Source: a virus
IMG/VR virus record: IMGVR_UViG_3300027852_000073
Strand: one strand, 5' to 3'
DNA: 43,309 nt
How positions within the stretch are numbered: the first letter of the stretch is position 1; every line of letters begins with the position of its first letter. The translations under genes and the position numbers were made by a program. This document shows positions 1 to 43,309 of the stretch, piece after piece. The notes under the pieces were generated by a model. That model was not told where the DNA came from. It worked only from the letters and a program-made list of their open reading frames with translations, and did no database searches.

Positions 1-127
1 CAAAACATTATAACATCTTCCATAATTTTACCTCCAGTGTTAATTGTTAATTTATCTACTTTCATATAAATATATTATATTAAATTCTTAACCAAAAGTA
101 AATATATAATGCCAAAAGAAAACAAAA
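1..127. repeat. Terminal direct repeat, copy 1 (identical to 43183..43309). This is the circular-closure overlap of the contig.
   Basis: Bases 1-127 recur base for base as the last 127 bases of the window. As a result, the first 23 nt of minus-strand gene 42930..43205 and its promoter (copy at 74..102) are duplicated here. Confidence 0.95.
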
Positions 128-6316: not shown

Positions 6317-7312
6317 ATGATGGTTGAAAGTAATCTGGATGACACAGTTGTTGATGGCATAGTTATTGATGACACAGTTGTTGATGACACAGTTGTTGAT
6401 GACACAGTTGTTGATGACACAGTTGTTGATGATACAGTTGTTGATGACACAGTTGTTGATGACACAGTTGTTGATGACACAGCTGATTGGATGAAGGAGG
6501 ATGATGACCAGACATTATCTGATAGTATGCCTGTTAGTGCACACATACGTGCAAAACGTAAGCTAAAGGGGAAAATCGAGGATAGAGATGCTGAGATTGA
6601 GAAACTCAAGAAGGAAAATGAAGGCCTTAAAAAACAAGGTTCAGCAACTCCTATTCGAGATAAAATCCTGGTAAGACCTAAACAGGATGAATTTGAATCC
6701 TTTGAGGCTTACCAAACTGCTCTGGATGAGTATGAAGACAAACGACTTGATTCTAAAATTTCTGTTATACATGGGCAAAATCAACTTCGTGATACACAAG
6801 CGAAGGCAATTAAAAAACTTAATTCAGCAGTAGACGACCATTATCTACGGGCTGATAAGTTGATTAAAGACAGTGGTATTTCAGCAGAAACTTATAAACA
6901 AGCGGATGAGATAGTAAGAAGTGCCATAGAGGCAATTAGGCCAGGGCAGGGCAACATAGTCGTTGATCAAATAATTTCTCTCTTAGGGAAAGGCTCTGAG
7001 AAAGTTATATATAAACTAGGAAGGAGCAATGCTCTTAGGGGTGAATTAATAACTCTTCTTTCAGAAGACCCCCATGGTTTGAGAGCAACTGCTTTCTTAG
7101 GTGAACAGAAAGCAAAACTATTAAGTACCACAAAAAGAAGATCAACTGCACCTGCACCTGCAAATGAATTAAATGGAGACGCTTCTTCTTCTAATAAAGA
7201 GCGAGTTTTCAAAAAGAAGTATGATAATGCTCACTCTAAAGGCAATTCTCAAGCTGCCTATAATGCTAAAAAAGAGGCAAAAGCTGCAGGTATTAATACT
7301 TCTAAGTGGTAG
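6317..7312 (+). CDS. Scaffolding protein candidate with an N-terminal (DDTVV)n repeat
   Basis: Lies between portal and coat as in P22. It is charged and helical (KLKGKIEDRDAEIEKLKKENEGLKK). An AAGGAGG RBS is present. Confidence 0.7.
   Translation: MMVESNLDDTVVDGIVIDDTVVDDTVVDDTVVDDTVVDDTVVDDTVVDDTVVDDTADWMKEDDDQTLSDSMPVSAHIRAKRKLKGKIEDRDAEIEKLKKENEGLKKQGSATPIRDKILVRPKQDEFESFEAYQTALDEYEDKRLDSKISVIHGQNQLRDTQAKAIKKLNSAVDDHYLRADKLIKDSGISAETYKQADEIVRSAIEAIRPGQGNIVVDQIISLLGKGSEKVIYKLGRSNALRGELITLLSEDPHGLRATAFLGEQKAKLLSTTKRRSTAPAPANELNGDASSSNKERVFKKKYDNAHSKGNSQAAYNAKKEAKAAGINTSKW
6341..6483 (+). repeat. In-frame 15-bp tandem repeat x9.5 (GACACAGTTGTTGAT, encoding DDTVV)
   Basis: Near-perfect units start every 15 bp from 6341. 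One diverged unit lies at 6356..6370 (DGIVI). Confidence 0.95.
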
Positions 7313-20279: not shown

Positions 20280-23140
20280 TGCCATTGCCAAAATATGTTC
20301 AAGATGCTTTTGACAGTAAAAATCTTTTTGCAGAAACTCCTCCTATGGAGAGTGGTATAGCAGAAACTCCTCCTATGGAGAGTGATATAACAGAAACTCC
20401 TCCTATGGAGAGTGATATAACAGAAACTCCTCCTATGGAAAGTGGTATAGCAGAAGATACTGTTCCTTTGGGTAGCCAAAGCCCTTTTCCACGAGGGAGT
20501 ATTCCCAAAACAGAAAGCAGTCTTCCTGATTATGTTCTTAAGGAAATGGGAAAAAGAGAACAACCTGAAGAATGGGGCACTGACTGGATGAGAGAGAACC
20601 CAACTCTTGCAGGTTTATATGGTGCAGGTAAGGGGTTACTTGAACAAGCAGTTGTTCCGACTATTGAAACTATAGGAATGATTGGTGGGAGTGCGGGTTC
20701 TCCTATTGTTGGGACAGCTCTTGGTTATGGAATGGCAAGACAACTTAGTGACTATCTTGTAGATTCATATAAGCGTCTTGGTGGAGAAGATATTGAAAAT
20801 AAAACAGTTGGCGAAGAGATGCTTCAAAGTGCTGCAGATGTTGGTACAGTTTTAGTTATGGGTAAAGCCATGGATATGGGGGTTAAGGCAGCGCCTTATA
20901 TTGAAGATTACTTATTTAAAGAGTTGCCAAAGAGATTATATGCAAGAGCAATTAAAACTCCAATGTCTAAAAAGTGGATACAAACTCTTCCTAATGAAAT
21001 AGTTTCAAAACAAACAGCTGCTATTGAAGAAGGACTTAGATCTAGGATTCCACCAAGTAAGTATGGACTTTCAAAGATAAAAAATCTTGAGAAAGAAGTA
21101 TCGGGGTATATTGATGACATTACTAAAATACTTTCTGAGGACCCTAGTAAAGTTATTAACAGAGAAGATATTCTTAAAGAGGGTTTAAAGAAAGCTTATG
21201 CTAAAGCTGCTACTAGTAGTGATCCAAAAGGAGCTAAAGGAATTGTTGATGCTATAGCTGACAGATTTAGAGCACACCCTGGTAGTTTAACTCCAGCAAA
21301 AGCAAACCAAATTAAACGTCAATTGTATAAAGAAGTAAAGTATGGGGCTTCAGAACCTGGAGCAATTAAAGCTCAAATGGATATAGTTGGAAAGAAGGGT
21401 GTGGCTAGAGAAATAATGCTAAACCTAGAAAAAACATATCCTGCATTGGCAGAACTTAATGCAACTGATGCCGCAAGAATAAGTTTAACCGAAGCTATTG
21501 AAAAATCATATGCCAGGGAAGCTCAAAAAAGCATGGTTCCCTTGGGAGCAAAAATATTATTACGTCCCAAAACTTGGCCACTATCTTTATGGGAATCGAC
21601 TATTGGGCACCCACAGATAAAAACAAGATTAGCTTTTGCTTTACATAAAGCTAATCCTGTTAAGTACCCAGCTAAGCCTTCAAAATATACTCCACCAGTT
21701 ACTCCAAAAGCTGTTTCATTAACCACAAAACCTCCTGAGTCTCTTATTGGTTTAAAGGGTAAAGCTCTACCCGAAGGAACTTATACATCAAGCCAGTTAA
21801 ACAGAATGCTTAAGTCAAAAGATGTTATTAAAGTAGATACAGCTTTAGAAAGCATCATTGAAAAAAGAATGGCTGATCATCTAGAAAGACAAAAGCATGT
21901 TACAACTGTTAATAAAATGCTGGGAATTCTTAAAAATGAAAAAGGTGCAGTTGGCCGTGACATAGGAAAAAAAAAATTAATTAAACCAGAGGTTAAATTA
22001 ACTACTAAATCAGTTGTTAAGCCAGTTGTTAAACCAAAAATTAAGTTAGCTAAACTATTAGAAAAAGAAGATTTAGGTTATAAAAACTTTCTTGAAAAAA
22101 TGATTAAAAATGCTCCAAATAAAATAATTAAAGCAGAATTAGAATCAGTTAGAGAGTTTATCCATCCTAATAGCATAGATAAAGTAACAAAAGCAGCAAT
22201 AAAACACAGTGGAGGCAAAATAGCAAAGGGTAAAAACCATGCTGAAATATATAAAGCTTTAGAATTAAAAGGCATACCTTTTAAAAATACTGAAGATATA
22301 GGTTTTGTAACAAATAAAAATAAATTTATGACTAGAGATCAAGCTGAAATTTTATATAAGTCTTATTCTGCTGATGAATTTTTTAATCCAGCTATTAAAA
22401 ATATGATAAATGAAAAAGCAGTAGAAACTATTCTCAAAAAAGGTTCAGTTAAACCAGTTGCTAAACCAACTGCTAAACCAAAAGAACCATTTGCTAAACC
22501 AGAGGTTAAACCAAAAGAAAAAATACTTTATCATACTTCTCATAAACTTTTAAAAAGTGGTAAACCAGTTAAAGATGCTTATTATGGAAATAAAGATTGG
22601 GCAAAAATGCATATAAGAGGTCGTACTGAAGAAACTCATAATTTTGGCGGTTATACTTATAAAGTAAAAGTACCTTCTAGTGCTAAAATTTTAGATTTAA
22701 GAAGTGGTTCTAAAGAATCTCGTGAACTTATGGCTAAATTTAATCATCAAGAGTATTCTTCGAATCCAGAATTTGCTAAAGATCTTTTAGCAGGTGATAA
22801 AATAGCTTTAGATGTTTTTTATGATGATTGGGCTGAATCAGCAAATAAGATTCTTAAACTTGCTAAATCTAAAGGGTACGATGGAATAAAATTTAATGAT
22901 GAATATTTTTTATCTAAAGGTTTAGTTAAAGAAATTCATGAAGTTGGACAAAGAACTTTAAAACCAATTGCTAAATCAGTAGCTGAACCAAAAATTAAAA
23001 TTTCTATTAAAGAGGAGCTTAAAAAATTAAAGGCAGATCTTAAAGAATTCAAAGAATTTGGAGATGATCTTGAATATATTGAAGATCTCAGTAAAGAAAT
23101 TAAAAAGTTAGAAGCACTTGAAAAGAGGAGTAAGAAATGA
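20279..23140 (+). CDS. Large multi-module ejection / internal virion protein candidate (953 aa) with polyvalent-protein-like architecture
   Basis: An N-terminal 10-aa repeat x4, a Gly-rich hydrophobic segment (LAGLYGAGKGLL...IGMIGGSAGSPIVGTALGYGMA), Lys/Pro-rich linkers (KPVVKPKIK and VKPVAKPTAKPKEPFAKPEVKPKEK) separating globular modules, and a C-terminal coiled coil. Confidence 0.6.
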   Translation: MPLPKYVQDAFDSKNLFAETPPMESGIAETPPMESDITETPPMESDITETPPMESGIAEDTVPLGSQSPFPRGSIPKTESSLPDYVLKEMGKREQPEEWGTDWMRENPTLAGLYGAGKGLLEQAVVPTIETIGMIGGSAGSPIVGTALGYGMARQLSDYLVDSYKRLGGEDIENKTVGEEMLQSAADVGTVLVMGKAMDMGVKAAPYIEDYLFKELPKRLYARAIKTPMSKKWIQTLPNEIVSKQTAAIEEGLRSRIPPSKYGLSKIKNLEKEVSGYIDDITKILSEDPSKVINREDILKEGLKKAYAKAATSSDPKGAKGIVDAIADRFRAHPGSLTPAKANQIKRQLYKEVKYGASEPGAIKAQMDIVGKKGVAREIMLNLEKTYPALAELNATDAARISLTEAIEKSYAREAQKSMVPLGAKILLRPKTWPLSLWESTIGHPQIKTRLAFALHKANPVKYPAKPSKYTPPVTPKAVSLTTKPPESLIGLKGKALPEGTYTSSQLNRMLKSKDVIKVDTALESIIEKRMADHLERQKHVTTVNKMLGILKNEKGAVGRDIGKKKLIKPEVKLTTKSVVKPVVKPKIKLAKLLEKEDLGYKNFLEKMIKNAPNKIIKAELESVREFIHPNSIDKVTKAAIKHSGGKIAKGKNHAEIYKALELKGIPFKNTEDIGFVTNKNKFMTRDQAEILYKSYSADEFFNPAIKNMINEKAVETILKKGSVKPVAKPTAKPKEPFAKPEVKPKEKILYHTSHKLLKSGKPVKDAYYGNKDWAKMHIRGRTEETHNFGGYTYKVKVPSSAKILDLRSGSKESRELMAKFNHQEYSSNPEFAKDLLAGDKIALDVFYDDWAESANKILKLAKSKGYDGIKFNDEYFLSKGLVKEIHEVGQRTLKPIAKSVAEPKIKISIKEELKKLKADLKEFKEFGDDLEYIEDLSKEIKKLEALEKRSKK
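20331..20456 (+). repeat. In-frame 30-bp tandem repeat x4.2 (AETPPMES[GD]I)
   Basis: CAGAAACTCCTCCTATGGAGAGTGGTATAG-type units start at 20331, 20361, 20391 and 20421. Confidence 0.95.
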
Positions 23141-33428: not shown

Positions 33429-33632
33429 TCATTCATTTCTAAGTATGTTGGCAATTTTATCTTTAATATATTGCCTAAGGCCATTTACAGATTTATCAAC
33501 TTCTTCCAATAGATTGGCACTATCTTCAACCTCTTTTTCTATTGCCACATCTAACCGGATACTTTCGTATGGAGCAGGCTGACAAGTCCGGCCATAAGAA
33601 ATTTTTACTCTTCTATTAGCCACTAATACCAC
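33429..33632 (-). CDS. Hypothetical protein (67 aa), GTG start
   Basis: GAGGAGGA RBS 5 nt upstream of the GTG. Confidence 0.65.
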   Translation of the reverse strand: MVLVANRRVKISYGRTCQPAPYESIRLDVAIEKEVEDSANLLEEVDKSVNGLRQYIKDKIANILRNE

Positions 33633-33994
33633 CCCCTATCCTCCTCTTTATTATTATATCCTTCTGTTATTCTTAAATAATTGTTTTTTTCTACAGCAAT
33701 AAACATTTCATTAATTTCTCCTGGAGAAATATTTAAAATTTCACAGATTCCTCCTAGAAAGAATATACAATCTATCACTTCTCTGATCACATTACAAATG
33801 TTATATTCTTGATCTTCTATTGCTCTCCAAGGTTTCCAAGGAGTACTGTTTACTATTTCTGCTACTTCTTGATTTAATGCTAATGCAAAATCTCGAAAAC
33901 TTCTCATCTTTTCTTCAGAAGTATATCCATCAAAATTATACCCCAACTTTTTGTGATAAGTTTTAATTCTTTCAAACATCTCAATTACATCCAT
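33623..33994 (-). CDS. mazG: MazG-like / dimeric dUTPase-like nucleotide pyrophosphohydrolase
   Basis: All-alpha NTP-PPase pattern: ALALNQEVAEIVN ... WK.W ... EVIDCIFFL. Confidence 0.7.
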   Translation of the reverse strand: MDVIEMFERIKTYHKKLGYNFDGYTSEEKMRSFRDFALALNQEVAEIVNSTPWKPWRAIEDQEYNICNVIREVIDCIFFLGGICEILNISPGEINEMFIAVEKNNYLRITEGYNNKEEDRGWY

Positions 33995-34412
33995 ACTTAA
34001 TCCAAGCCTTTCCCCATAGCTCTTTTGCTTCTAGGTGTTTATGTTCAGTTAAAAATATAATTCTTTTACAAGGTGTATTCATTATCATTTTGATACAAGC
34101 CACACAGGGACTTAAAGTTGTATATATGGTGTGTATCTGTTCTGGAACTCTACATTGTATAAGTGCATTTTGTTCTGCATGAGCTGAAGAACATTTGGCT
34201 GGATTATTGGTTTCCAGTTTTATACAATGTCCAAGTTCAATACAGTGTTCATACCCTCGTGGAGCTCCATTATAGCCAGTTGCAATAATTTCATTTCTAC
34301 TATTTATAATAACACAACCTACTTGCTTATCTAAACAAGTACTTCTTTCTGCAAGAGCTTGAGCTATTTTCAAGTAGCATTCATTTTTTGAGATTCTTGC
34401 TTTGATTATCAC
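33981..34412 (-). CDS. dCMP (deoxycytidylate) deaminase
   Basis: Zinc motifs HAEQNAL and PCVACIKMI, plus AERSTC...VGCVI. GTG start with an AGGGAG RBS. Confidence 0.88.
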   Translation of the reverse strand: MIIKARISKNECYLKIAQALAERSTCLDKQVGCVIINSRNEIIATGYNGAPRGYEHCIELGHCIKLETNNPAKCSSAHAEQNALIQCRVPEQIHTIYTTLSPCVACIKMIMNTPCKRIIFLTEHKHLEAKELWGKAWIKYGCN

Positions 34413-35067
34413 AAGCCATTCTCCCTTGCTTACAATTGCCAGTCATAAAACAATCAGGACCAACTAAATTAAATAAATTAGGCCACCAACCTTTAGCTAT
34501 AGTAGACATAGCTTTTGCAAACAAAAGCATCTCAGTAACATTGCGTTCACACATGCGAAGGTTGAGAAAGTTTATTAAAGACCTAGCATTTACTGTCCAC
34601 ATAATATTAACCGCTTTAGCATTGGGAAGAATTTGTCTAGCTTCCTCTTTTGGTATGCCTCTATTAATGAGGCTTTTATAATACATATCCAAATCATCAA
34701 GTATTCTTTTAGCATCTAAGTTATCAACCATATTAGGATGAAGTATATTTGGGTATTCATCATATTCTTGATAATGCTGACTTGCTGAAGTAAATGACCC
34801 CATACGATGACGGGTTATCTGTGCCAAAAAAGACCTCGATACATTTGATATAATAACTGTTATATAACAATGCTCAAAGATTGAGGTATGATTTGCTTTA
34901 AGCAAATATTTAACCAGTCGTTCTTTTTTTTCTGGGCTATTATAAACGGCATAATTTTTCTTTTGAGTCAGATTGCTTGCTGCTACACATGTCCAATCTG
35001 GAGTTGGAGTTTTATAAACAATATTAATTTTGCAGTCCTCATAAGACTTAAATCTCTTCTTTGTCAT
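34381..35067 (-). CDS. thyX: Flavin-dependent thymidylate synthase (ThyX family)
   Basis: HTSIFEH, SRSFLAQITRHRMGSFTSAS (the RHR-x7-S ThyX motif), ARQILPN and NARSLINFLNLR. Confidence 0.88.
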   Translation of the reverse strand: MTKKRFKSYEDCKINIVYKTPTPDWTCVAASNLTQKKNYAVYNSPEKKERLVKYLLKANHTSIFEHCYITVIISNVSRSFLAQITRHRMGSFTSASQHYQEYDEYPNILHPNMVDNLDAKRILDDLDMYYKSLINRGIPKEEARQILPNAKAVNIMWTVNARSLINFLNLRMCERNVTEMLLFAKAMSTIAKGWWPNLFNLVGPDCFMTGNCKQGRMACDNQSKNLKK

Positions 35068-35344
35068 TTTCCCTCCTTTCAAACCAAAATAAAAACATTA
35101 AATTACATGCAGCATGAAGTAAATGAGATAGTCCTGATTCTTTATCCATAAGTGAACCAGCCCTCCATTCCATTAAATGCCTCATAACCGCTCCATAATA
35201 TCTGTCTTGTGGATCTCTTAAAGTTTGCCAGTTATATGGCTTATATTTTTTAGCACCAAACGTCAAAACTTTTCCAATTCCACTGATAAAAGTAGGGTTA
35301 ATTAAATCTAGCCTATTTTTATCGTTATCTAACTTTTTACTCAT
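35048..35344 (-). CDS. dGTP_diPhyd_N-like (dATP/dGTP diphosphohydrolase N-terminal domain-like) protein, 98 aa
   Basis: GAKKYKPYNW ... RHL ... DKESGLSHLLHAACNLMFL resembles PF18909-type proteins as I recall them. GGAGGA RBS. Confidence 0.55.
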   Translation of the reverse strand: MSKKLDNDKNRLDLINPTFISGIGKVLTFGAKKYKPYNWQTLRDPQDRYYGAVMRHLMEWRAGSLMDKESGLSHLLHAACNLMFLFWFERRENDKEEI

Positions 35345-35361
35345 AGATTATCCTCCAGTTA

Positions 35362-35422: not shown

Positions 35423-36001
35423 TTATTTATTTTTTCCTTTCTTATTTTTTTTACCCTTGGTTATTTCATAGGGAACTTCATAAATTGGAACTTCATCAAC
35501 TGGAGCTTCATCAACTGGAGCTTCATCAACTGGAGCTTCATCAACTGGAGCTTCACCAACTGGAGCTTCACCAACTGGAGCTTCAGCAAGAATTTTTTCG
35601 GCTGCACCAAGCTCAAGTTCCGCAATCTTAAATTCCGCATCAGCTTTGATAAATTTTAACTCGTTCAGTTTGTTTGCTTTATCAGCTTCATGACGTTTCT
35701 TTGCATTGTCAAATGCGGATGCCGCTCTTGTGGATCTTTTTTCAGCACGTTCAACACGTTGGGCAGGTGTAAGGTTTTTTGTAACTGCAGTTCCTGACTC
35801 TGCCTTGTGTGCATCCCACTCCTCCCCGGTAACAATCTTAAATGTGCCATCTTCTTGCTTCATAGGGCAGTTACCCATCATCCTCATATAAGTGAATTGT
35901 GATGCAAGACCCTTTTCAGTAGTTCCTGTTAATAAAAGCAACGATTCTTTTGTTGCTCCACCCTTTTCAATTGCAATCTTAATGTCATCTCTCATTGCCA
36001 T
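35423..36001 (-). CDS. Winged-helix-like DNA-binding protein with a basic helical region and a C-terminal (EAPV[GD])n repeat; paralogous wHTH to 1018..1371
   Basis: ATG at 36001 with a GGAGG RBS. TEKGLASQFTYMRMMG aligns with STKNVSSQLTYLRTDG of the 1018..1371 protein. The gene has its own promoter and terminator. Confidence 0.75.
   Translation of the reverse strand: MAMRDDIKIAIEKGGATKESLLLLTGTTEKGLASQFTYMRMMGNCPMKQEDGTFKIVTGEEWDAHKAESGTAVTKNLTPAQRVERAEKRSTRAASAFDNAKKRHEADKANKLNELKFIKADAEFKIAELELGAAEKILAEAPVGEAPVGEAPVDEAPVDEAPVDEAPVDEVPIYEVPYEITKGKKNKKGKNK
35476..35580 (-). repeat. In-frame 15-bp tandem repeat x7 (plus-strand unit CTTCATCAACTGGAG; encodes EAPVD/EAPVG)
   Basis: Four identical units span 35491..35550 and two CTTCACCAACTGGAG units span 35551..35580. 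One diverged unit lies at 35476. Confidence 0.95.
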
Positions 36002-36065
36002 AAATAAAATCCTCCATGTTAAAGGTTCATGTTGCTTAATTGCCATATGCAATTACTTATAAATA

Positions 36066-36094
36066 ATTATATAGTTTTTAATGCCAAAAGTAAA
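36066..36094 (-). promoter_or_regulatory. Early promoter, family member D (TTTACT-N17-TATAAT)
   Basis: Minus strand: TTTACTTTTGG...TATAAT. The -35 hexamer is at 36094..36089 and the -10 hexamer at 36071..36066. Confidence 0.55.
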
Positions 36095-36110
36095 TGCGTA
36101 ATACTAAAAA

Positions 36111-37274
36111 TTATTCAGATATATCTGCAAACACATCAATCGCTTTGGAATCAGTTTGTATTGCTGGACGGCCATCTGATTCAGGAACCATAGAAATCTT
36201 ACCATCTGGAGTTTCAAAAAGCTGTTTAAATGCATCATTTTTCTTGAGAGTTCTAAGTTCCTTTTCAAGTTGACTGGGTGAACGAAGTTTAGATGTGAAC
36301 AACTCTTCAATAGACGTATTCTTGGCCAACCAAGTAATAGCAGCATTTTCATCTACCCATTTTCTATTAGCTCTACCTCTAATCAACTTCATCCCTGGAA
36401 CATCATTTCCCTTTGTTAGTTCTGTCTGTAAGTACAACCTTATACTCTTAATAGCATCTTCTACCAAAGGAGCCAATTTAATCAATTCAACTAAACTCTC
36501 CATTGACGAGCATGTAGCAAGCTTTTCTTTGGCATCAAAGAGCTTAACTGCTGTTTCTTCTGCAAATCTCATTCGTGCTTCACAATGGTTCTTAGCTTCA
36601 CACCACCTACATTGATCTATTCCAGGATTGAACTTATCAATTCCTGAAGATTGGCATTTATTTAATGCAATAGCAAGAACACCATGGACCCAATCATACA
36701 ATTCATGAATTGAGAGTTCCCATGTATCATAATGATCAATAGCTGGTTGCACAATATGTAGAGTTATTGTTTGGACACCTGTAGGCCAACTAAGAACACC
36801 CGCTGCATATGCTAACAACTGAGGATTTTCTTTGGCATAGACTGTAATACCCGCGCCAAATTTCCAATCAATAATATCTGCATGCCGTTTAATAGGGTTT
36901 ATAATGCTATAATCAAGAGTACCCCAAACATCACGGATACCCCAGGATGATAAATAAACAATTAATTCTGATTTTATTATTAAATTAGAATGCCCAATAC
37001 TTTTGAAAACTAAATCTAAATACTCTGTAGCATCCTCTATAAGAACTCTATCATCTAACTCTAACCCATCAAGAGCTTTAACATTGTGATTTCCAGGACT
37101 AATATAATGTTTTTCTATAACACTATGAAGCATAGTCCCATGAGCTGCATCTACACTAGCTTTTTTCTCTGCTATTGTAGATGTAATCATAAGATTTTCT
37201 ATTAACTCAACTGACCCCGGACAAGCAATAATCCTGGACAATCTAGACGGGCTATAATTTGAATGTTGTGCCAT
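36111..37274 (-). CDS. DUF2800-family PD-(D/E)xK (Cas4-like) nuclease
   Basis: N-terminal YSPSRLSRIIACPGS, typical of DUF2800. C-terminal Cys cluster (CRWCEAKNHC). Lies next to the DUF2815/PolA module. Confidence 0.8.
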   Translation of the reverse strand: MAQHSNYSPSRLSRIIACPGSVELIENLMITSTIAEKKASVDAAHGTMLHSVIEKHYISPGNHNVKALDGLELDDRVLIEDATEYLDLVFKSIGHSNLIIKSELIVYLSSWGIRDVWGTLDYSIINPIKRHADIIDWKFGAGITVYAKENPQLLAYAAGVLSWPTGVQTITLHIVQPAIDHYDTWELSIHELYDWVHGVLAIALNKCQSSGIDKFNPGIDQCRWCEAKNHCEARMRFAEETAVKLFDAKEKLATCSSMESLVELIKLAPLVEDAIKSIRLYLQTELTKGNDVPGMKLIRGRANRKWVDENAAITWLAKNTSIEELFTSKLRSPSQLEKELRTLKKNDAFKQLFETPDGKISMVPESDGRPAIQTDSKAIDVFADISE

Positions 37275-37280
37275 TACTTT

Positions 37281-37466
37281 TTACCTCCTTTTTCTTTTAA
37301 CTTCAGAAATTTCTGTTATTGTATATGGTAATTTTGTAAGTTTAGTATAACCACAATCACACCTTAATAAAAAATCATATTTATTTGTGCTATGAGGAGT
37401 AAAAATCAAAAGTGTTCTAAATTTATGTCTATGGAATAACTCTTTTAATTTGTTTTTTATACTCAT
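37281..37466 (-). CDS. Small Cys/His protein (61 aa)
   Basis: GGAGGGAAT RBS. Contains HRHKF ... CDCG. Confidence 0.7.
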   Translation of the reverse strand: MSIKNKLKELFHRHKFRTLLIFTPHSTNKYDFLLRCDCGYTKLTKLPYTITEISEVKRKRR

Positions 37467-37486
37467 ATTCCCTCCATTTTGAGTAA

Positions 37487-37529
37487 AAATATTCCAACCA
37501 GTTTTCTCATAAAACTGGTTGGAATATTT
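37487..37529. terminator. Perfect 19-bp-stem hairpin (intrinsic terminator or processing site)
   Basis: AAATATTCCAACCAGTTTT (37487..37505), loop CTCAT, AAAACTGGTTGGAATATTT (37511..37529). On the minus strand the 3' arm runs into TTTTT. Confidence 0.7.
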
Positions 37530-37585
37530 AATTACTATTAAAATTCTTACAATAATTTATTATATTATATTGTATTCTACTACCA

Positions 37586-37780
37586 TTATTTAATTACCTC
37601 CTTTATTTGAAAATTGTCCCTCATACCTCCAAAATAATATTTTATTGAAGCATGATTCACTTCTAATTTTGCAGCAAGTCTTTTTGTCATCAAAAAGAAT
37701 GCTTTGTTAATGGTTGAAGCATGTCTAAAGAAATTATGAAGTTCACCATAATAATTGAATTTTCCCTCATATAGTGCCAT
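37586..37780 (-). CDS. Hypothetical protein (64 aa)
   Basis: AGGAG RBS. Confidence 0.7.
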   Translation of the reverse strand: MALYEGKFNYYGELHNFFRHASTINKAFFLMTKRLAAKLEVNHASIKYYFGGMRDNFQIKEVIK

Positions 37781-37795
37781 TTATACTCCTATAGC

Positions 37796-37978
37796 TTATG
37801 TTGGTAGTCCAGTAACTGGATCTATAGTAATTCCTCTCCAATCTTTTTTTATAAAGAAACGTCCATTTTGATAATCAAAAATTAATTCATCAGTTGTTTT
37901 AGATTGTTTGATATTAGTTGCACCTATTATTTTTAACTTTTTTAATAAATCTTTAAAAATTTTAAGATCTTCAGCCAT
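37796..37978 (-). CDS. Hypothetical protein (60 aa)
   Basis: GGAGGA RBS lying inside the 3' end of the upstream small ORF. Confidence 0.7.
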   Translation of the reverse strand: MAEDLKIFKDLLKKLKIIGATNIKQSKTTDELIFDYQNGRFFIKKDWRGITIDPVTGLPT

Positions 37979-37982
37979 AATA

Positions 37983-38090
37983 TTATCCTCCTATAGCTTT
38001 AAAACACCAAAAGTAACCAAATATTGTGCCAAGAAAAAAGAAAAATAAAAACATAATAATATAATCTAATGGTTCTGTAAATAGTTTCAT
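37983..38090 (-). CDS. Small hydrophobic membrane peptide, 35 aa (not in the ORF track)
   Basis: AAGGAG RBS. The ATG is 1 nt after the stop of the repeat protein. Sequence: MKLFTEPLDYIIMFLFFFFLGTIFGYFWCFKAIGG. Confidence 0.5.
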   Translation of the reverse strand: MKLFTEPLDYIIMFLFFFFLGTIFGYFWCFKAIGG

Positions 38091-38091
38091 T

Positions 38092-38916
38092 TTACTCCTT
38101 TATGTTTTTCCAATTTGGTATTCTATTTAAAGGATTAGAAAATAATTCCCAAAAAACAGGTTGTATTACTTTTTTATAGTTATCCCGTGCAAGTTGTCTT
38201 ACTTTTTCATAGTTATCCCATGCAGGTTGTCTTACTTTTTCATAGTTATCCCATGCAGGTTGTCTTATTTTTTCATGGTTATCCCATGCAAATTGTATTA
38301 CTTTTTCATAGTTATCCCATGCAGATTGTTTTACTTTTTCATAATTATCCCGTGCAGATTTTTCTACTTTTTCATAGTTATCCCGTGCAGGTTGTGTTAC
38401 TTTTTCATAGTTATCCCATGCGAGTTGTCTTACTTTTTCATAGTTATCCCATGCAGGTTGTGTTACTTTTTCATAGTTATCCCATGCAAGTTGTATTACT
38501 TTTTCATAGTTATCCCATGCAGGTTGTCTTATTTTTTCATGGTTATCCCATGCAAATTGTATTACTTTTTCATAGTTATCCCGTGCAGGTTGTCTTACTT
38601 TTTCATATTTATACCATGCAGATTGTTCTAAAAGTTCTGGAATAATTGCTATTTGACTAAATTCACCAAGTATAATCTTTTTTACAATTTCTTGTGGAAA
38701 GTTATTTATATCTGAAAAATCAGTACATTCCATTCTTTTTCCTTGTTTACTTGATAACCCAAAATATTCACGAATGGCTCCATGTCCTTTTATTTCTTCA
38801 TAAAAATTATAATTCAGTTTTCTACAAAGTTCTTTACCATCCGGGGTATTTAATTCATAATTAGAAATATACAAAAGTTTACCTTTATATTCTATCCAAC
38901 TTATAAATTCACACAT
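38092..38916 (-). CDS. Early protein with a ~97-aa N-terminal domain plus 14 tandem 11-residue repeats (Q.AWDNYEKV.)
   Basis: AAGGAG RBS. It is in the same operon and orientation as its neighbours. The repeat length is a multiple of 3 nt and the frame is conserved. Confidence 0.8.
   Translation of the reverse strand: MCEFISWIEYKGKLLYISNYELNTPDGKELCRKLNYNFYEEIKGHGAIREYFGLSSKQGKRMECTDFSDINNFPQEIVKKIILGEFSQIAIIPELLEQSAWYKYEKVRQPARDNYEKVIQFAWDNHEKIRQPAWDNYEKVIQLAWDNYEKVTQPAWDNYEKVRQLAWDNYEKVTQPARDNYEKVEKSARDNYEKVKQSAWDNYEKVIQFAWDNHEKIRQPAWDNYEKVRQPAWDNYEKVRQLARDNYKKVIQPVFWELFSNPLNRIPNWKNIKE
38164..38625 (-). repeat. In-frame 33-bp tandem repeat x14
   Basis: 14 units encode Q[PLFS]A[WR]DN[YH]EK[VI]x. 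Units 2-3 recur as units 10-11, which indicates a higher-order duplication. Confidence 0.95.
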
Positions 38917-38918
38917 TT

Positions 38919-39146
38919 TTACTCCTTTACAAAATCTTTAAGAATTTTACGAACTTCTTTGGCTTCCTTACCTCTCCAATAAACTATGTTGTTTAAAACA
39001 TAAAGACATTGTACTTTAAGTGAATATCCTGTCATAGCCAATCCTGTTTCTGCATAATTAATGGCATAGTTTAAAGCTTTAGCCTCTTTGTTTTTCACAA
39101 TAACTTTTAATGCTTCACGAACTACATCTTCATGAGCTTTTCCCAT
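38919..39146 (-). CDS. Hypothetical protein (75 aa)
   Basis: GGAGGA RBS. Confidence 0.75.
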   Translation of the reverse strand: MGKAHEDVVREALKVIVKNKEAKALNYAINYAETGLAMTGYSLKVQCLYVLNNIVYWRGKEAKEVRKILKDFVKE

Positions 39147-39271
39147 TAGTTTGTCCTCCGCTTATCCAATTTTGCTTGAAGTTTCTTAGCTTGTTTTTAA
39201 GAATTGCCAATGGGTTACTGGCAAACTCTTTCTCCAACCTTCTAAGTTTCTTTTCTAACTCAATGATAAAT

Positions 39272-39403
39272 TTATTCCTTGTTTAACTCAATTTTAGCCA
39301 ATCTTCCAAGTTCTTCTCTATCTTCAGATGATAATTCTTTAAGCTCTGGTAAACTTACTTTTCTTCCAGAATCTCCTGCCCCTACATTTGAAATTGTTGC
39401 CAT
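39272..39403 (-). CDS. Small ORF, 43 aa (not in the ORF track)
   Basis: AGGAGGG RBS 7 nt upstream of the ATG. It is the first ORF downstream of promoter 39460..39488. Confidence 0.5.
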   Translation of the reverse strand: MATISNVGAGDSGRKVSLPELKELSSEDREELGRLAKIELNKE

Positions 39404-39459
39404 GTTTCATCCCTCCTGTTTGGTAGTTAATAGTTAACTTATTTACCTTCATATAATTC

Positions 39460-39488
39460 ATTATACTAAGTTTTCAGCTAAAAGTAAA
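39460..39488 (-). promoter_or_regulatory. Early promoter, family member C (TTTACT-N17-TATAAT)
   Basis: Minus strand: TTTACTTTTAG...TATAAT. The -35 hexamer is at 39488..39483 and the -10 hexamer at 39465..39460. Confidence 0.55.
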
Positions 39489-39521
39489 CACATAATATCA
39501 AAAGAAAAGAAATAATTCTAT

Positions 39522-39734
39522 TTATAATGAAGCTAAATGGTGACATAATTCTTTTGCTGCTATTGTAGCAGCATTACCACAATTTTCACAAAAAACTACA
39601 GTTTGTTTTAATCCTTTATCTTTAAAATATATATTATTATGAGTTATTATATCTTTAAAACTAATTGATAATCCATAAAATATATCATGACCTAAAATTA
39701 ATTCTTTTTGGCAATTGAAACATTTATATTTCAT
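39522..39734 (-). CDS. Zinc-ribbon protein (70 aa)
   Basis: CFNC ... CENC. ATG at 39734 with an AAAGGTGG RBS. Confidence 0.7.
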   Translation of the reverse strand: MKYKCFNCQKELILGHDIFYGLSISFKDIITHNNIYFKDKGLKQTVVFCENCGNAATIAAKELCHHLASL

Positions 39735-39750
39735 AATATCCACCTTTTTC

Positions 39751-39966
39751 TTATTTACTTGTATAGAGAAAACAACTTATTACTTTACAGTTATTACCTG
39801 TGACATTAACTCCACACTTAGCTGACTGTATTCTAATAGTACAATTTTTAAGTGTTGAATTAGGTCCAACTAATTTAACAGCTGCTATAATAGGCCGTTC
39901 TAATAATAGCCCAGTCAACCAACATATAATACAATAACAACAAAAAAGTAAAATCCAAGGAATCAT
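39751..39966 (-). CDS. Small membrane protein (71 aa) with an N-terminal Cys-rich TM helix
   Basis: MIPWILLFCCYCIICWLTGLLL. GGAGGA RBS. Confidence 0.7.
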   Translation of the reverse strand: MIPWILLFCCYCIICWLTGLLLERPIIAAVKLVGPNSTLKNCTIRIQSAKCGVNVTGNNCKVISCFLYTSK

Positions 39967-39979
39967 TTTTATCCTCCTT

Positions 39980-40129
39980 TTATTTAATATTTATTCGGTA
40001 TATATCGTCTCTTAATTCATCAACATCTTGATTTAATTCATCCAATTTTTCTATTATTTTATTGATAGTTTCAATTATAGTAGGAACATAAGTATTGTTT
40101 GTATAAATTGGCATATCAATTTTTTTCAT
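39980..40129 (-). CDS. Small coiled-coil ORF, 49 aa (not in the ORF track)
   Basis: AGGAGGA RBS. It fills the gap between the primase gene and 39751..39966. Confidence 0.55.
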   Translation of the reverse strand: MKKIDMPIYTNNTYVPTIIETINKIIEKLDELNQDVDELRDDIYRINIK

Positions 40130-40141
40130 TTTGTCCTCCTT

Positions 40142-42505
40142 TTATTCAAAGTCTGTATTCTTTGGTGGCATGACATATTTAACCCATTGTCCTTGTGTGA
40201 TTATCCCATTTTCAATAGAACCTTTGTATCTTCTGAGGGGTTTCATTCTGTTTGTAGTATGTGTATAATTGCCACACAACCGTTTAAGCAAGTGTTTTAA
40301 TTCTGCAGGTTTAATTTGAAGAGTGGGGTATCTTTGTTTTATGGCACCAAGTATTTCACTCATCTTTGAAAGCTCTTTATTACGTTGAATACTTATATTT
40401 TCATACTCAGCAGGTTTACTGTGAAAGTTCATATCAAAATCAAAAACATCTCTAAGTATGATTTCCATATTAGATTGAGCTCTAAATTCTTCATTTACTT
40501 TATATTGTAGTTTTATAGTTTCTTTAGATAGTTTCCAGGGATGAATGCCATTAGTCATAGCCTTTTTTCCTTTAGCTATATATTCTTTGTAAAAGTGATG
40601 CCAATTAATATTTTCCATTGCAGTTGTATTAATATATCTCACATCTATCATAGCCAATCTTCTATTACTATCTTGTTCAAATGCTAAACTTCTTCTGTTT
40701 GTTGTTCCTGCCAAAACAGCATTCTTGAATTCTTTCCTCATAGACTTCTCATAAATGGGGACATAGTCAATTACATCTGAGGTTACATAAGTCTTAAACA
40801 GTGAGTCATTCTTTTTATTGTAGAAGATTTCAAATTCATCTGTGACAACAAGAGCAGACGTTACCAAAGAAGTTGCAAAGTCTCGTATGGATTTGGCTCC
40901 TCCAAGTGTTTCTGTTGAGTTAGTAACAAATTGTCTCCTTAAATTAGGTGGAAACAGCATCGAGAAAAAGGTAGTTTTTCTACAGTTTTCTGGTCCTGTC
41001 ATAACAAGCATAAAGCTTCGCTGAGAGTATTTCCTTTCTATATTATAAAGGGGCATCATCATTTCAAAAAAGAAAGTATCAAAATAGTTTTTGGCTAATT
41101 CAATGTCTTGTGTTACATTGAACTTTATACACGACATCAGAAAATTTAAATTTGATTTCTTAATATCTGTTTTTTTTTCAATCATATCCTTTGACAACTC
41201 TTCCTCAGGAGTATCCAACCACAACTTGAGCATATTTACTGTCTTTACATTATCCATTAAATATGCACTAAACAATGGTGATATAGTTGAGTAGGTCACA
41301 TTGGCATATCCATTCTTTTGTGCAATCACCCAAAATTTAAATTTAAGTTCCTCAACTGAATAAGGTCCTATCATCCCAAAATAGTCTGATATATTTTCTT
41401 TACCAAAGAAAAACTTATTTAGTATGTCTTCGTCTGCTTTGACATAAAAGCTACCATTAAATATATCCTGACACAAATGAATATTAAAGTAGTTCATCAT
41501 ATATTCAAAGTTTTCACATGAATTTATCATGGGCTTTCCAGTAGGATTGCCTTGTTTGTCATAGGCTTCTTGTGGCCATTGAAACTTCAACATTTGAGCA
41601 AACTTGAACAATGTGTGGAATGTTATACCTGATTCCTTTTGGGATAGTGAGGACCAATGTTTTATTACATCTTCTTCACTTTCAAAGGATTTATTATCAG
41701 TTTGAGACCATTCTACAACGGCAGATACTATTCTGGTCATCTGGTTTGATTTAACTGCATAATCATGACAAGCTGATAGAATCTTTAACCAATAGTCATA
41801 ATGATTGTAGTCTTGACCCGTGATAGTTTTGTAAACTGTTTTAACCCTAGTTCTTTGGTCCAAAAAGCATGTATTCAGTGCATCAAGAGCTAAATTCAAT
41901 GGTGGAGTATCAGATTCAACAACCTCAGCTTTCTTAGTTTCTTCGGTTATATACCACTGTTTTAACTTTTCAGGTTTTATAGTTGCAATACCTTCACCTG
42001 CTACTTGATTCCCAGTAATGGTAACATATCCAGAGTTTATATACAACTCACCACCAATGCATAAATCTTTAGACAGACTAGCTCTACCAGGAAGACTATC
42101 TTTATTTTCACAGTGCATTAATATCCTGACACCACATCCCGATGGTGATATCTCCGCATATGAATTATGTTTTGCCATAAACTCTTGAAACTCTTTTGAC
42201 AATCGTGACATATCAAAGGCTCTTTTGCCAAGTTTGGCATCTTTGTCATCAACATCAAACGCTACCAAGTCAGTATGTTTATTTATCTTAATCCCAGGAT
42301 ACCCATCTTTAATGGCTTCTTCAAACGTCACACCCCATTGATCTGCATCTACAGAATGGCCTTGCTGAGCACAAGGTGGTTTGGAGAACGTACCATCTTT
42401 ATTAGGGCGAAAATAGTAAGCCAACCAAATTTTTGATTCTCTGATTTCTTTTGGAATATTTGCAGTTATTTGATTTATGACATCAGTTTTATTCAGTTTT
42501 GGCAT
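40142..42505 (-). CDS. Primase-helicase fusion: N-terminal AEP (prim-pol-like) domain plus C-terminal VirE/D5-like SF3 P-loop NTPase
   Basis: AEP motifs LVAFDVDD and ISPSGCGVRIL. P-loop VMTGPENCRKTT. Walker B LVVTDEFE. 787 aa. Confidence 0.85.
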   Translation of the reverse strand: MPKLNKTDVINQITANIPKEIRESKIWLAYYFRPNKDGTFSKPPCAQQGHSVDADQWGVTFEEAIKDGYPGIKINKHTDLVAFDVDDKDAKLGKRAFDMSRLSKEFQEFMAKHNSYAEISPSGCGVRILMHCENKDSLPGRASLSKDLCIGGELYINSGYVTITGNQVAGEGIATIKPEKLKQWYITEETKKAEVVESDTPPLNLALDALNTCFLDQRTRVKTVYKTITGQDYNHYDYWLKILSACHDYAVKSNQMTRIVSAVVEWSQTDNKSFESEEDVIKHWSSLSQKESGITFHTLFKFAQMLKFQWPQEAYDKQGNPTGKPMINSCENFEYMMNYFNIHLCQDIFNGSFYVKADEDILNKFFFGKENISDYFGMIGPYSVEELKFKFWVIAQKNGYANVTYSTISPLFSAYLMDNVKTVNMLKLWLDTPEEELSKDMIEKKTDIKKSNLNFLMSCIKFNVTQDIELAKNYFDTFFFEMMMPLYNIERKYSQRSFMLVMTGPENCRKTTFFSMLFPPNLRRQFVTNSTETLGGAKSIRDFATSLVTSALVVTDEFEIFYNKKNDSLFKTYVTSDVIDYVPIYEKSMRKEFKNAVLAGTTNRRSLAFEQDSNRRLAMIDVRYINTTAMENINWHHFYKEYIAKGKKAMTNGIHPWKLSKETIKLQYKVNEEFRAQSNMEIILRDVFDFDMNFHSKPAEYENISIQRNKELSKMSEILGAIKQRYPTLQIKPAELKHLLKRLCGNYTHTTNRMKPLRRYKGSIENGIITQGQWVKYVMPPKNTDFE

Positions 42506-42686
42506 TTATCAAATCCATTCTATCATATTTTTCAATTCCTGCAAATTCAAATCCTCTCCAAAGATTGCGAAGAGTAGCGTAACCAAAGGAAAAGAAATTA
42601 GCTGCTTCCTTTGCAGTATAATGGGCTTTAAATAATTCTAATGCTTTTTGTTTGTCTTCTATAGACATGTAATTTTTTGTTGACAT
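42489..42686 (-). CDS. Small HTH-like protein (65 aa)
   Basis: ATG at 42686 with an AAGGAGG RBS. YTAKEAANFFSFGYATLRNLWRGF looks like an HTH. Confidence 0.65.
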   Translation of the reverse strand: MSTKNYMSIEDKQKALELFKAHYTAKEAANFFSFGYATLRNLWRGFEFAGIEKYDRMDLINAKTE

Positions 42687-42720
42687 CTGTACCTCCTTGA
42701 TTGAATTGTTTAATAAAATC

Positions 42721-42749
42721 ATTATAGTTTGTTTTTATAAAAAAGTAAA
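42721..42749 (-). promoter_or_regulatory. Early promoter, family member B (TTTACT-N17-TATAAT)
   Basis: The -35 hexamer is at 42749..42744 and the -10 hexamer at 42726..42721 on the minus strand. The AAGGAGG RBS of the next gene lies about 25 nt downstream. Confidence 0.55.
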
Positions 42750-42929
42750 CAAAAAAAGAGCTGGGTTAACAAATAAGTCTGGATTGGTTAGTATTATTTA
42801 TTTATCATTTATTTATGCACAATTTGAGTTTTATAAATAGCTGGAAGTATTGGCAAGAGTATTGAGGGACATAATGATAAAGAAGTATTTTCTAATAGTC
42901 AAGATAAAAACAATGCCAAAGAAGTTGAT

Positions 42930-43205
42930 TTATTTTGTTAAAAAAATAAATAAATCATATTTACTTAAATCATCTAAATAAATATAATCTTCACCACATT
43001 CGCATTTATTACATCTATACTCATTTAAAAGATTAAAAGTACTGAATCTACAATTTTCTATATTTACAGCATCAGTACAATTTATACAAGTTATACAAAA
43101 TTCATTAGGTTCACCAAATTTATCTTGAAAAATTTCTATATCAGTATCTTCATTTGTTACAAAAACAGCTTTACAATTTGGACAAAACATTATAACATCT
43201 TCCAT
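42930..43205 (-). CDS. First early gene: Cys-rich multi-CxxC zinc-ribbon protein (91 aa)
   Basis: ATG at 43205 with a GGAGG RBS. Contains CPNC, CITCINC and CNKCEC. Confidence 0.75.
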   Translation of the reverse strand: MEDVIMFCPNCKAVFVTNEDTDIEIFQDKFGEPNEFCITCINCTDAVNIENCRFSTFNLLNEYRCNKCECGEDYIYLDDLSKYDLFIFLTK

Positions 43206-43309
43206 AATTTTACCTCCAGTGTTAATTGTTAATTTATCTACTTTCATATAAATATATTATATTAAATTCTTAACCAAAAGTAAATATATAATGCCAAAAG
43301 AAAACAAAA
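43183..43309. repeat. Terminal direct repeat, copy 2 (identical to 1..127)
   Basis: Exact 127-bp identity with the start of the window. Confidence 0.95.
43256..43284 (-). promoter_or_regulatory. Early promoter, family member A (TTTACT-N17-TATAAT); a duplicate copy lies at 74..102
   Basis: Minus strand: TTTACTTTTGG...TATAAT, about 50 nt upstream of the first early gene. Confidence 0.55.

Follow-up and report, generated by a model that had tools for sequence, protein, structure and literature searches.

A phage protein of a large uncatalogued family in which a conserved N-terminal domain and tail are separated by a hendecad array of varying unit number

The repeat gene and its array

The IMG/VR virus record IMGVR_UViG_3300027852_000073, whose 43,309 nucleotides were analysed at full length and are referred to as the window in the following, carries on its minus strand at 38092..38916 a complete gene for a 274-residue protein built around a tandem array of 11-residue units (hendecads). 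Based on the listing of open reading frames (ORFs), its translation and an alignment of homologues, the protein consists of an N-terminal domain (N-domain) of 97 residues (38626..38916 (-)), 14 units of 33 bp each (residues 98-251, 154 residues in total; 38164..38625 (-)) and a 23-residue C-terminal tail (residues 252-274, QPVFWELFSNPLNRIPNWKNIKE; 38095..38163 (-)) in which the motif FW.LF....NR...W was identified. As detailed below, the protein belongs to a large, widespread and uncatalogued family unlike any characterised phage protein, whose members conserve N-domain and tail while the number of units between them varies, and it is predicted to form a head from which the array projects as a stalk. 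A Shine-Dalgarno sequence, AAGGAG, was read from the sequence at 38922..38927 (-), 5 nucleotides 5' of the ATG of the repeat gene, which together with hundreds of homologues conserved at the protein level documents the ORF to be a real gene. An upstream ORF of 75 residues terminates 2 nucleotides ahead of this ATG, suggesting that the repeat gene is translationally coupled to it. The long antisense ORFs found at 38161-38645 (+) are probably by-products of the repeat.

Tandem Repeats Finder identified the array at 38157-38626 with a period of 33 bp, 14.2 copies, 88% matches and a score of 709, which renders it by far the strongest tandem array across the whole window. This agrees with the ORF listing and with the initial annotation, made from the sequence of the window, which had described a 274-residue ORF with 14 tandem 11-residue repeats. 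The units follow the consensus QPAWDNYEKVR, whereby Ala3 and Lys9 are present in 14/14 units, Gln1, Asp5, Asn6 and Glu8 in 13/14 each, and variation is found at position 7 (Tyr in 12, His in 2), position 10 (Val in 12, Ile in 2) and position 4 (Trp in 10, Arg in 4); for these counts a tail-derived unit 15 was subtracted from a 15-unit tally. Proline is present in 7/14 units. The higher-order duplication claimed earlier, according to which units 2-3 equal units 10-11, holds after a shift of register, as units 3 and 11 show 0/33 differences in DNA and a stretch of 28 residues (DNYEKVIQFAWDNHEKIRQPAWDNYEKV) occurs twice in the translation, at residues 113-140 and 201-228. The hydrophobic moment of residues 98-251 peaks with 0.377 at 98.18 degrees (360 x 3/11), while at 100 degrees a value of 0.139 and at 102.86 degrees, the heptad angle, one of 0.038 was obtained. 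The array thus possesses a true, quantitative 11/3 (hendecad) periodicity, and the amphipathic 11/3 character ascribed to it by the initial annotation is borne out.

A large and uncatalogued family

A word-indexed search returned 38 homologues, of which 31 combine the N-domain with 11-residue repeats and the tail. The N-domain was used as a profile hidden Markov model (HMM) to scan 1.84 billion cluster representatives, and 583 clusters (50% identity) were identified at E <= 1e-3, 429 of them reaching E <= 1e-10, with nearly every match starting at residue 1. Members derive from metagenome contigs (one record is annotated as marine sediment metagenome), from 65 IMG/VR viral contigs and from contigs of metagenome-assembled genomes (MAGs), the latter being labelled Dehalococcoidia, Methanoperedens, Fibrobacteres, Parcubacteria, Saccharibacteria and Portnoybacteria, and no member bears a meaningful name in any source checked.

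The suggestion that the protein does not resemble characterised phage proteins was corroborated by a series of searches. Nothing above threshold was found in Pfam-A, PHROGs, NCBIfam or PADLOC for the protein, the N-domain alone or 30-32 family members. The sub-threshold profile matches were all driven by the repeats (tape measure, Scy, CsgB, FliH, Phasin and Cas11), whereby the best PADLOC match was Cas11 with E 4.9e-4, obtained for 1/32 members and restricted to the repeat region; no significant profile match to a known anti-phage defence or anti-defence component of PADLOC was obtained. Profiles of the full family, of its N-domain and of a second N-domain family introduced below did not match any PDB sequence, the best one, Glr2806 with E 0.12, not being credible. 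Using the predicted model of the N-domain, Foldseek found no match in the PDB (best E 2.4, template modelling score below 0.3) or in BFVD (best E 0.9), and with the full model it returned generic coiled coils alone (E > 0.05). Neither the N-domain nor a family-consensus sequence identified a homologue by tblastn in 50,697 GenBank phage records, and megablast of window positions 36000-43309 against GenBank phages gave no match. An exact DNA search of the JGI metagenomes and IMG/VR revealed no further copies of the window gene, the exact 274-residue protein is absent from the protein index searched, and literature searches for a described equivalent returned nothing relevant. One member, P0277, carries a precomputed match to PF28068.1, which might have been added to Pfam very recently to cover the family.

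A cyclophane (triceptide) precursor of the AmcA type, i.e., a ribosomally synthesised and post-translationally modified peptide, was considered as well and rejected on three grounds: the model NF041721 scored 16.5 bits against a cut-off of 40, no radical-SAM family is listed among the called genes around the contig L001 that is near-identical to the window, and most family members carry WAEY rather than WDN.

The conserved head

Conservation of the N-domain was determined for 336 non-identical members, with 332-336 of them aligned per column. Met1 (328), Cys2 (319), Ser6 (332), Gly44-His45 (334), Glu63 (327) and Pro74 (334) were identified as the most prominent positions, and Trp7, Phe67 and Phe73 are near-invariant too. 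Cys2 is replaced by Ser in 11/332 members (~3%), and where an N-terminal extension was mis-called a Met still immediately precedes the Cys; a Cys at position 2 is compatible with removal of the initiator Met by methionine aminopeptidase. Within the tail, the family alignment revealed Phe255, Trp256, Asn264, Arg265 and Trp269 as near-invariant columns, and a loose regular expression found the motif FW.LF....NR...W in 124/179 members. Conservation across the family shows N-domain and tail to be what is kept, i.e., the likely functional core, with the repeats as the variable and dispensable part, a reversal of the earlier reading in which the N-domain had been treated as secondary. The pattern of conserved polar residues, comprising Cys2, Ser6, His45, Glu63 and the Asn-Arg pair of the tail, suggests a candidate reactive or ligand-binding centre that uses an N-terminal Cys. 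The N-domain is mildly acidic, with a net charge of -3 and an isoelectric point of 5.2.

AlphaFold2 modelled the N-domain alone with a predicted local distance difference test score (pLDDT) of 87.6 and a predicted template modelling score (pTM) of 0.80; in its model of the full protein, described below, the domain comprises beta5-10, beta13-15, alpha19-22, alpha25-41, alpha45-52, beta60-64 and alpha75-82. This order of elements was compared with the Ntn (N-terminal nucleophile) hydrolases, including class II glutamine amidotransferases, which were rejected as relatives: they need a four-layer alpha-beta-beta-alpha core of ~200 residues, while the head comprises ~95 residues in the order beta-beta-alpha-alpha-alpha-beta-alpha and has no fold or Pfam match. 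SRAP proteins (YedK and HMCES), whose domain measures roughly 200 residues, share with the head a Cys directly after the initiator Met, an invariant His and Glu and an association with replication. YedK uses Cys2, Glu105 and His160, and SRAP cross-links abasic sites (PMC9436759). The head differs from them in its ~95 residues, its acidity and the Ser which stands for Cys in 11 members; no SRAP match was obtained in Pfam, and YedK and HMCES were neither found in the HMM searches of the PDB at E <= 10 nor among the Foldseek matches. The resemblance is one of residue chemistry alone and hence is to be taken as a lead rather than as a classification.

Taken further, this lead would render the head a minimal N-terminal-cysteine domain, whose Cys1 alpha-amine and thiol might act together with His45, Glu63 and the tail Asn-Arg to trap an electrophile covalently. 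The target could be either the aldehyde of an abasic site on replicating phage DNA, with an SRAP-like thiazolidine as product, or an E1/E2~ubiquitin-like or acyl thioester of a host defence system, in a reaction resembling native chemical ligation. The stalk would then set the reach of the head or evade recognition, and, as the second, unrelated-looking N-domain family described below has a Met-Cys start, stalk and tail as well, a Cys-first head combined with a hendecad hairpin would constitute a general design. This proposal is considered highly improbable. A possible likeness of the tail sequence FWDLF to the sliding-clamp-binding consensus QL[SD]LF was also considered, but was not relied on.

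Related architectures of the N-domain and the module

The N-domain was also observed on other scaffolds. Two genes of locus L073 (690-1367 and 1931-2668) encode a divergent N-domain fused to MORN_2 repeats (1.6e-33). In L008 (6001-6933), a Parcubacteria MAG scaffold of 450 kb, a divergent, chromosomal N-domain is fused to helical repeats of ~38 residues which were read as HEAT-like, and it adjoins genes whose translations, on visual inspection, resemble uvrC and typA; as this copy is chromosomal, the N-domain is not exclusively viral. L012 (6001-7044), from a Methanosarcinales MAG, encodes a divergent N-domain fused to other helical repeats, likewise read as HEAT-like.

A second family of 43 matches (P0032, P0033, P0037 and P0292-P0331) possesses a different N-domain of ~115 residues (MCQGV...GIGSHS...SIESDFS.WNKF...AHVK.CGKIDDAL) in front of the same hendecad types and a similar tail, AWIKLFS.K.NR...LQ. 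Its members always start with Met-Cys and show an invariant His29, Glu58 and Phe61 as well as a near-invariant Asp60 (the ESDF motif), in the same order as in the first family. When both N-domain families were compared by hhalign, a probability of 0.15% was obtained and the local motif DFS..N.F alone was aligned, which is not significant. Homology between the two is hence not established despite their colinear motifs, but it is striking to find a Cys-first head, a hendecad hairpin and an NR tail combined a second time.

Hypervariable number of units

Contig L001 (ENA ERZ27237542, 43,095 bp) shares 99.97-100% identity with the window over the aligned flanks, and its repeat protein has 8 units compared with 14 in the window, resulting from an indel of 198 bp (6 units). 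The deletion fuses unit 2 to unit 8, which have QPARDNYEKV in common, and the identity of ~30 nucleotides at the junction is probably too short to mislead an assembly with k=141. Two further contigs, one from JGI 3300002180 and one from Logan SRR5248754, match the window with 100% identity and both end inside the array, which shows that the phage is present in further samples and that short-read assemblies are interrupted by the array. Across the family, 32 pairs share N-domains of at least 95% identity, and in 23 of these the length of the spacer between N-domain and tail differs, always by whole units (1-7) and thus by exact multiples of 11 residues. Paralogues within one viral contig were found to differ likewise: in L049 two genes at 1282-1965 and 3291-4160, ~2 kb apart, encode near-identical heads with spacers of 102 and 179 residues, and in L053 the genes at 3932 and 6001, also ~2 kb apart, encode near-identical heads with spacers of 146 and 157 residues. 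Comparison of these sequences shows that unit number is hypervariable and quantised in whole units, so that the check for copy-number variation which had been proposed earlier met with variation both in L001 and in the close pairs.

Within the family, the spacer ranges from 0 to ~17 units, the 14 units of the window standing near the upper end, and its length equals 3 mod 11 in 106/183 members with no preference for odd or even numbers. Several repeat types were identified, all with an 11-residue period (among them AWAEYEKVRQP, LDADYEAKRAP, VDAKWRAELNA, ALKLYEETEAQ, ARKIYDDTCDK and IDDDYDAKLKL), and each carries one aromatic residue, Tyr or Trp, at a fixed position. Across these unrelated types a helix-core pattern is kept, with a small or hydrophobic residue at position 3, an aromatic at 7 and a hydrophobic one at 10, and some members have a non-repetitive helical segment in place of the array. 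Members with zero repeats join LL.Q straight to AFWDLF, as exemplified by P0058 (115 residues), where 'LLVQT' runs into 'AFWDLF', and P0108 lacks the spacer as well. As these members join N-domain and tail directly, the two ends of the array must come together at a single site of the head.

Repeats evolve in concert within arrays. In the window, the variant states of the units comprise 2 synonymous and 13 non-synonymous ones, with 19% synonymous expected by chance; the variation among units is not distinguishable from neutrality and the array is young or homogenised. These observations bear on the suggestion that the head is the whole functional protein and the array a tolerated, self-expanding insertion into a surface loop, which drifts by replication slippage and recombination and has no function of its own. 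Such a stalk would be in line with the retention of head and tail in zero-unit members, with the broad, flat distribution of unit numbers and its lack of a parity preference, with the neutral pattern of synonymous and non-synonymous variation and with the concerted evolution within arrays. However, the 11-residue period and the core pattern are maintained across unrelated repeats, and a non-repetitive helix of similar length is found in some members, which counts against a functionless stalk, as an unselected insertion would be expected to decay or to be lost. Furthermore, the same module is attached to the distinct N-domain of the second family. A functionless stalk is thus regarded as unlikely.

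Predicted fold of the stalk

AlphaFold2, supplied with the family alignment, modelled the full protein with a pLDDT of 91.7 and a pTM of 0.70. The array was predicted to form two antiparallel helices, residues 98-174 and 181-260, both with pLDDT > 90 and connected by a turn at ~175-180, and DSSP assigned bridge residues at 96 and 264. The model thus predicts that residues 96 and 264 are bridged, with the tail packing back on the N-domain, and that the array is a straight antiparallel helical hairpin located between both. With ~77 residues per arm and 1.5 Å per residue, the stalk would be ~115 Å long. Independent of AlphaFold2, a hairpin inserted into a head made of N-domain and tail fits the architecture of the zero-repeat members.

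By its 11-residue hydrophobic period and, in the AlphaFold2 model, its long paired helices, the array recalls other hendecad coiled coils and antiparallel hairpins, such as the cytoplasmic domains of chemoreceptors, SMC arms, BAR domains and Streptomyces Scy. The sole Foldseek neighbours of the full model are of this kind (3g67, 2ch7, F-BAR domains and JetABC/Smc arms; E 0.05-0.4), and they are non-significant and reflect generic geometry; the weak NCBIfam matches to Scy in 10/32 members are non-significant, too. Unlike the window protein, none of the chemoreceptor, SMC, BAR and Scy coiled coils possesses its head domain, and we know of no such coiled coil whose close relatives vary between 0 and 17 units.

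A helical wheel drawn by hand at 98.2 degrees places Val10, Ala3, Tyr7, the variable residue 11 and Trp4 on one apolar stripe, flanked by Glu8 and Asn6; Lys9 points to the centre of the polar face. The net charge of the array is +1 (about 0). This narrow stripe suggests packing of helix against helix rather than binding to a membrane surface. The initial annotation had put its emphasis on membranes or fibres, and in its membrane variant this reading assumes an amphipathic, lipid-binding 11-mer whose repeats lie flat on the inner membrane, maybe together with a transmembrane peptide in exclusion or in the timing of lysis. Apolipoprotein A-I, alpha-synuclein, LEA proteins and perilipin have the 11-residue period and the 3-11 helix geometry in common with the window array, as well as a Pro in about half of the units, and 11/22-mers punctuated by Pro recall apolipoprotein A-I in particular. 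The sharp 11/3 hydrophobic moment would be expected of such a helix, Trp and Tyr are typical of the membrane interface, and the MORN repeats which replace the hendecads in some relatives have been proposed to bind lipid. In contrast to lipid-binding 11-mers, the window array combines a narrow apolar face with an unsuitable charge pattern and is predicted to form a closed hairpin on a globular head. A class A lipid-binding 11-mer is not recognisable in it, as the wide apolar face with Lys or Arg at the interface that defines such helices is not found; rather, the apolar arc is narrow, the interface is occupied by Glu, Lys is centred on the polar face and the net charge is ~0, all of which is unlike class A/A2 helices. 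At E <= 1 no match to the Pfam families Apolipoprotein, Synuclein, LEA_4 or Perilipin was obtained, and the one related match was Phasin with 16 bits against a cut-off of 28.8. The high-confidence closed hairpin of the AlphaFold2 model, which leads back to the head, and the existence of zero-repeat members likewise speak against membrane binding.

The transmembrane peptide in question is a 35-residue ORF at 37983..38090 (-), directly downstream of the repeat gene, which encodes a single hydrophobic helix (MKLFTEPLDYIIMFLFFFFLGTIFGYFWCFKAIGG). The final two sense codons of the repeat gene supply the Shine-Dalgarno sequence of this ORF, AAGGAG, which overlaps the stop codon; for this reason the peptide is probably real in the window phage, although it was not called by the gene caller on L001, and its translational coupling to the repeat gene is a point in favour of a membrane role. 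Short transmembrane peptides were found for ~4/47 distinct downstream ORFs in related loci, i.e., 3 besides that of the window phage, so a conserved downstream partner was rejected: the small membrane peptide noticed earlier stands as a probable gene of this phage but not as a partner of the family. Binding of the array to membranes is considered distinctly unlikely.

The predicted packing of the helices bears as well on the possibility that the array is multivalent. According to this idea, each unit or unit pair displays the same surface of Trp, Tyr, Glu and Lys and binds one of many copies of a host protein, a nucleic acid or a small molecule, as a sponge, a decoy or a scaffold (directed, for example, against a defence system), with the number of units tuning the capacity and the head acting as a cap or anchor. 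The fast change of unit number among near-identical genes in many lineages would be explained thereby, as would the tandem paralogues with unequal unit numbers in L049 and L053, the occurrence of the same N-domain on other repeat scaffolds (MORN_2 in L073 and, as read, HEAT-like repeats in L008 and L012) and the one Tyr or Trp found at the same position in every repeat type. Nevertheless, it is common for members to possess no more than 0-2 units, 2 units being found in 9 members, and the repeat sequence diverges widely between members whose head is conserved. The variant sites of the units look neutral, and the conserved Tyr, Ala and Val locate, by the helical wheel and the AlphaFold2 model, to the predicted helix-helix core and hence off the surface. 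A multivalent array is judged unlikely.

Genomic position and transcription unit

An exact terminal direct repeat of 127 bp was identified at window positions 1-127 and 43183-43309, and the ends of the window map contiguously onto L001, so that the window seems to represent a complete genome, circularly permuted and ~43.18 kb in length. Its virion genes encode a P22-type portal, terminase, a major head protein, the head closure protein Hc3, ejection proteins and a tailspike whose N-terminal domain is P22-like, by which the phage was assigned to the P22-like podoviruses, i.e., short-tailed phages without a tape measure. The minus-strand arm harbours a primase/VapE helicase, a DUF2800 PD-(D/E)XK exonuclease, ThyX, a dCMP deaminase and a dGTP_diPhyd_N protein, furthermore an Enc34-like single-stranded DNA-binding protein, PolA, a ligase and a helicase. 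Here the repeat gene is located between the primase/VapE helicase and the PD-(D/E)XK exonuclease, on the strand opposite to the virion genes.

This location bears on the idea of a tape-measure-like or virion structural protein, in which the Trp-marked 11-residue repeats would be chaperone-binding marks on a ruler. Pfam holds an entry for an 11-residue repeat of phage tape measures, TMP repeat. With those repeats the window array has the 11-residue unit, a conserved aromatic, a variable number of units and evolution by duplication and loss in common, and the repeat region gave weak PHROGs matches (phrog_1272, 1.3e-5; phrog_4070, 4.5e-5). Tape measures are known to carry 11-residue repeats marked by Trp or Phe, Pattern 1 being [FW]-x10 x7 (Belcaid et al. 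2011, PMC3271669). In the window, the residues at position 4 of the 14 units are, in order, W,R,W,W,W,W,W,R,R,W,W,W,W,R, and the longest run of Trp is 5, compared with at least 7 consecutive [FW] markers at 11-residue spacing in that pattern. Unlike tape measures, whose genes belong to the tail module of long-tailed phages and whose length scales with that of the tail, the window protein is small (274 residues), has a conserved globular head and shows Arg for Trp in 4/14 units. Judged from its P22 portal, Hc3, tailspike and ejection proteins, the phage is a P22-like podovirus and lacks a long tail; the gene resides on the opposite strand within the replication module and the PHROGs matches are limited to the repeats. 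The tape-measure reading is thereby effectively refuted.

Transcription of the repeat gene probably starts from a sigma-70-like promoter at 39460..39488 (-), TTTACT-N17-TATAAT (TTTACTTTT-N14-TATAAT), which was recognised by its match to the consensus and an upstream T-rich element; the repeat gene is the third ORF after it. Altogether four near-identical promoter-like sites of the form TTTACTTTT-N14-TATAAT were found on the minus strand (43284-43256, 42749-42721, 39488-39460 and 36094-36066), three of them with the T-rich element (ttttcttttcttttg...attat) upstream, and they probably constitute an early set which divides the replication arm into units. A stem-loop at 37487..37529, whose stem measures 19 bp and which precedes a T-rich run, is listed as terminator-like on the plus strand. 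Situated between the unit of small genes and the exonuclease unit, it probably also ends the minus-strand unit of the repeat gene. Given this promoter and stem-loop, the earlier placement of the gene in a promoter-proximal early unit is a fair description, early or middle being meant. The role in host takeover, superinfection exclusion or anti-defence that the initial annotation had read from this placement is a guess.

Among related loci, clustering of ORFs in 79 loci was used to examine the neighbours. Genes recurring beside the family in other phages encode a single-stranded DNA-binding protein, ERF, a DnaB-primase, N6/N4 methylases, an HTH_36 initiator and a metallophosphatase.

A proposed model

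Considering the above, a model is suggested in which the repeat gene gives rise to a soluble cytoplasmic protein made early in infection. The 97-residue N-domain and the last ~20 residues, conserved across the family, would together form the head as the conserved functional unit, and the 14 observed hendecads between them would constitute a two-helix hairpin of ~115 Å which leaves and rejoins the head at the same point, as the hairpin and the contact of head and tail were predicted. An untwisted hendecad seam would let the hairpin zip from its base at any integer number of units, odd or even, and recombination between repeats would gain or lose whole units with the head left undisturbed. It is proposed that stalk length is quantised and hypervariable for exactly this reason, i.e., because whole hendecads could be exchanged without disturbing the head. 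The polar cluster of the head, formed by the N-terminal Cys after removal of Met, Ser6, His45, Glu63 and the tail Asn-Arg, is inferred to be a reactive or a ligand- or metal-binding centre, with the stalk serving as spacer or interaction arm. As the arena of its action DNA replication and recombination or the takeover of the host may be assumed, to judge from genomic position alone. Taken as a whole, the model is favoured tentatively, with slightly less than even confidence; confidence in the proposed structure is moderate and in the proposed chemistry low.

Several points weigh against this model. Collapse of repeats in short-read assemblies would inflate the apparent differences in copy number. 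An antiparallel homodimer, in which each tail packs on the head of the other chain, fits the monomer AlphaFold2 model equally well, and Pro in half of the units may kink the helices. The neutral variation among units implies that the sequence of the stalk may be under little selection beyond helicity. The grouping of Cys2, Ser6, His45, Glu63 and Arg265 in one centre is putative and was drawn from conservation, and the acidic N-domain argues against direct binding to DNA. Finally, no neighbour gene was found in more than 12/67 loci, by which the genomic context is a weak hint to function.

If the model holds true, the protein represents a widespread, unrecognised family of at least 583 clusters at 50% identity. 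Its design would be unusual, in that a coiled-coil hairpin of 0 to ~17 identical hendecads interrupts the conserved globular head and changes in length faster than point mutations accumulate. Moreover, the invariant Met-Cys start and the His and Glu would hint at N-terminal-cysteine chemistry on a fold without match in the PDB or BFVD. The family provides a natural series for the tolerance of hendecad hairpins towards the insertion of units, and the locus a clean marker for strain-level variation in uncultivated phages. As contigs break inside it, the array is also a recurrent cause of fragmented assemblies.

Other features of the window

The window phage is unusually rich in coding repeats. 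Further in-frame tandem repeats were found as a 15-bp period of 9.7 copies at 6338-6482 (ORF 6317-7312), a 15-bp period of 7.9 copies at 35472-35589 inside ORF 35423-36052, a 15/30/45-bp array at 1642-1845 and, within the ORF of 953 residues at 20279-23140, a 30-bp period of 4.2 copies plus 12/33-bp repeats (20330-20455 and 22006-22519). These other coding arrays show no difference between the window and L001. On the minus strand, a cluster for nucleotide metabolism was identified at ~33600-35350, corresponding to 13375-15096 of L001, which comprises dGTP_diPhyd_N, ThyX, dCMP deaminase and dUTPase_2-like genes and may serve to supply the phage DNA with a modified or non-canonical base.

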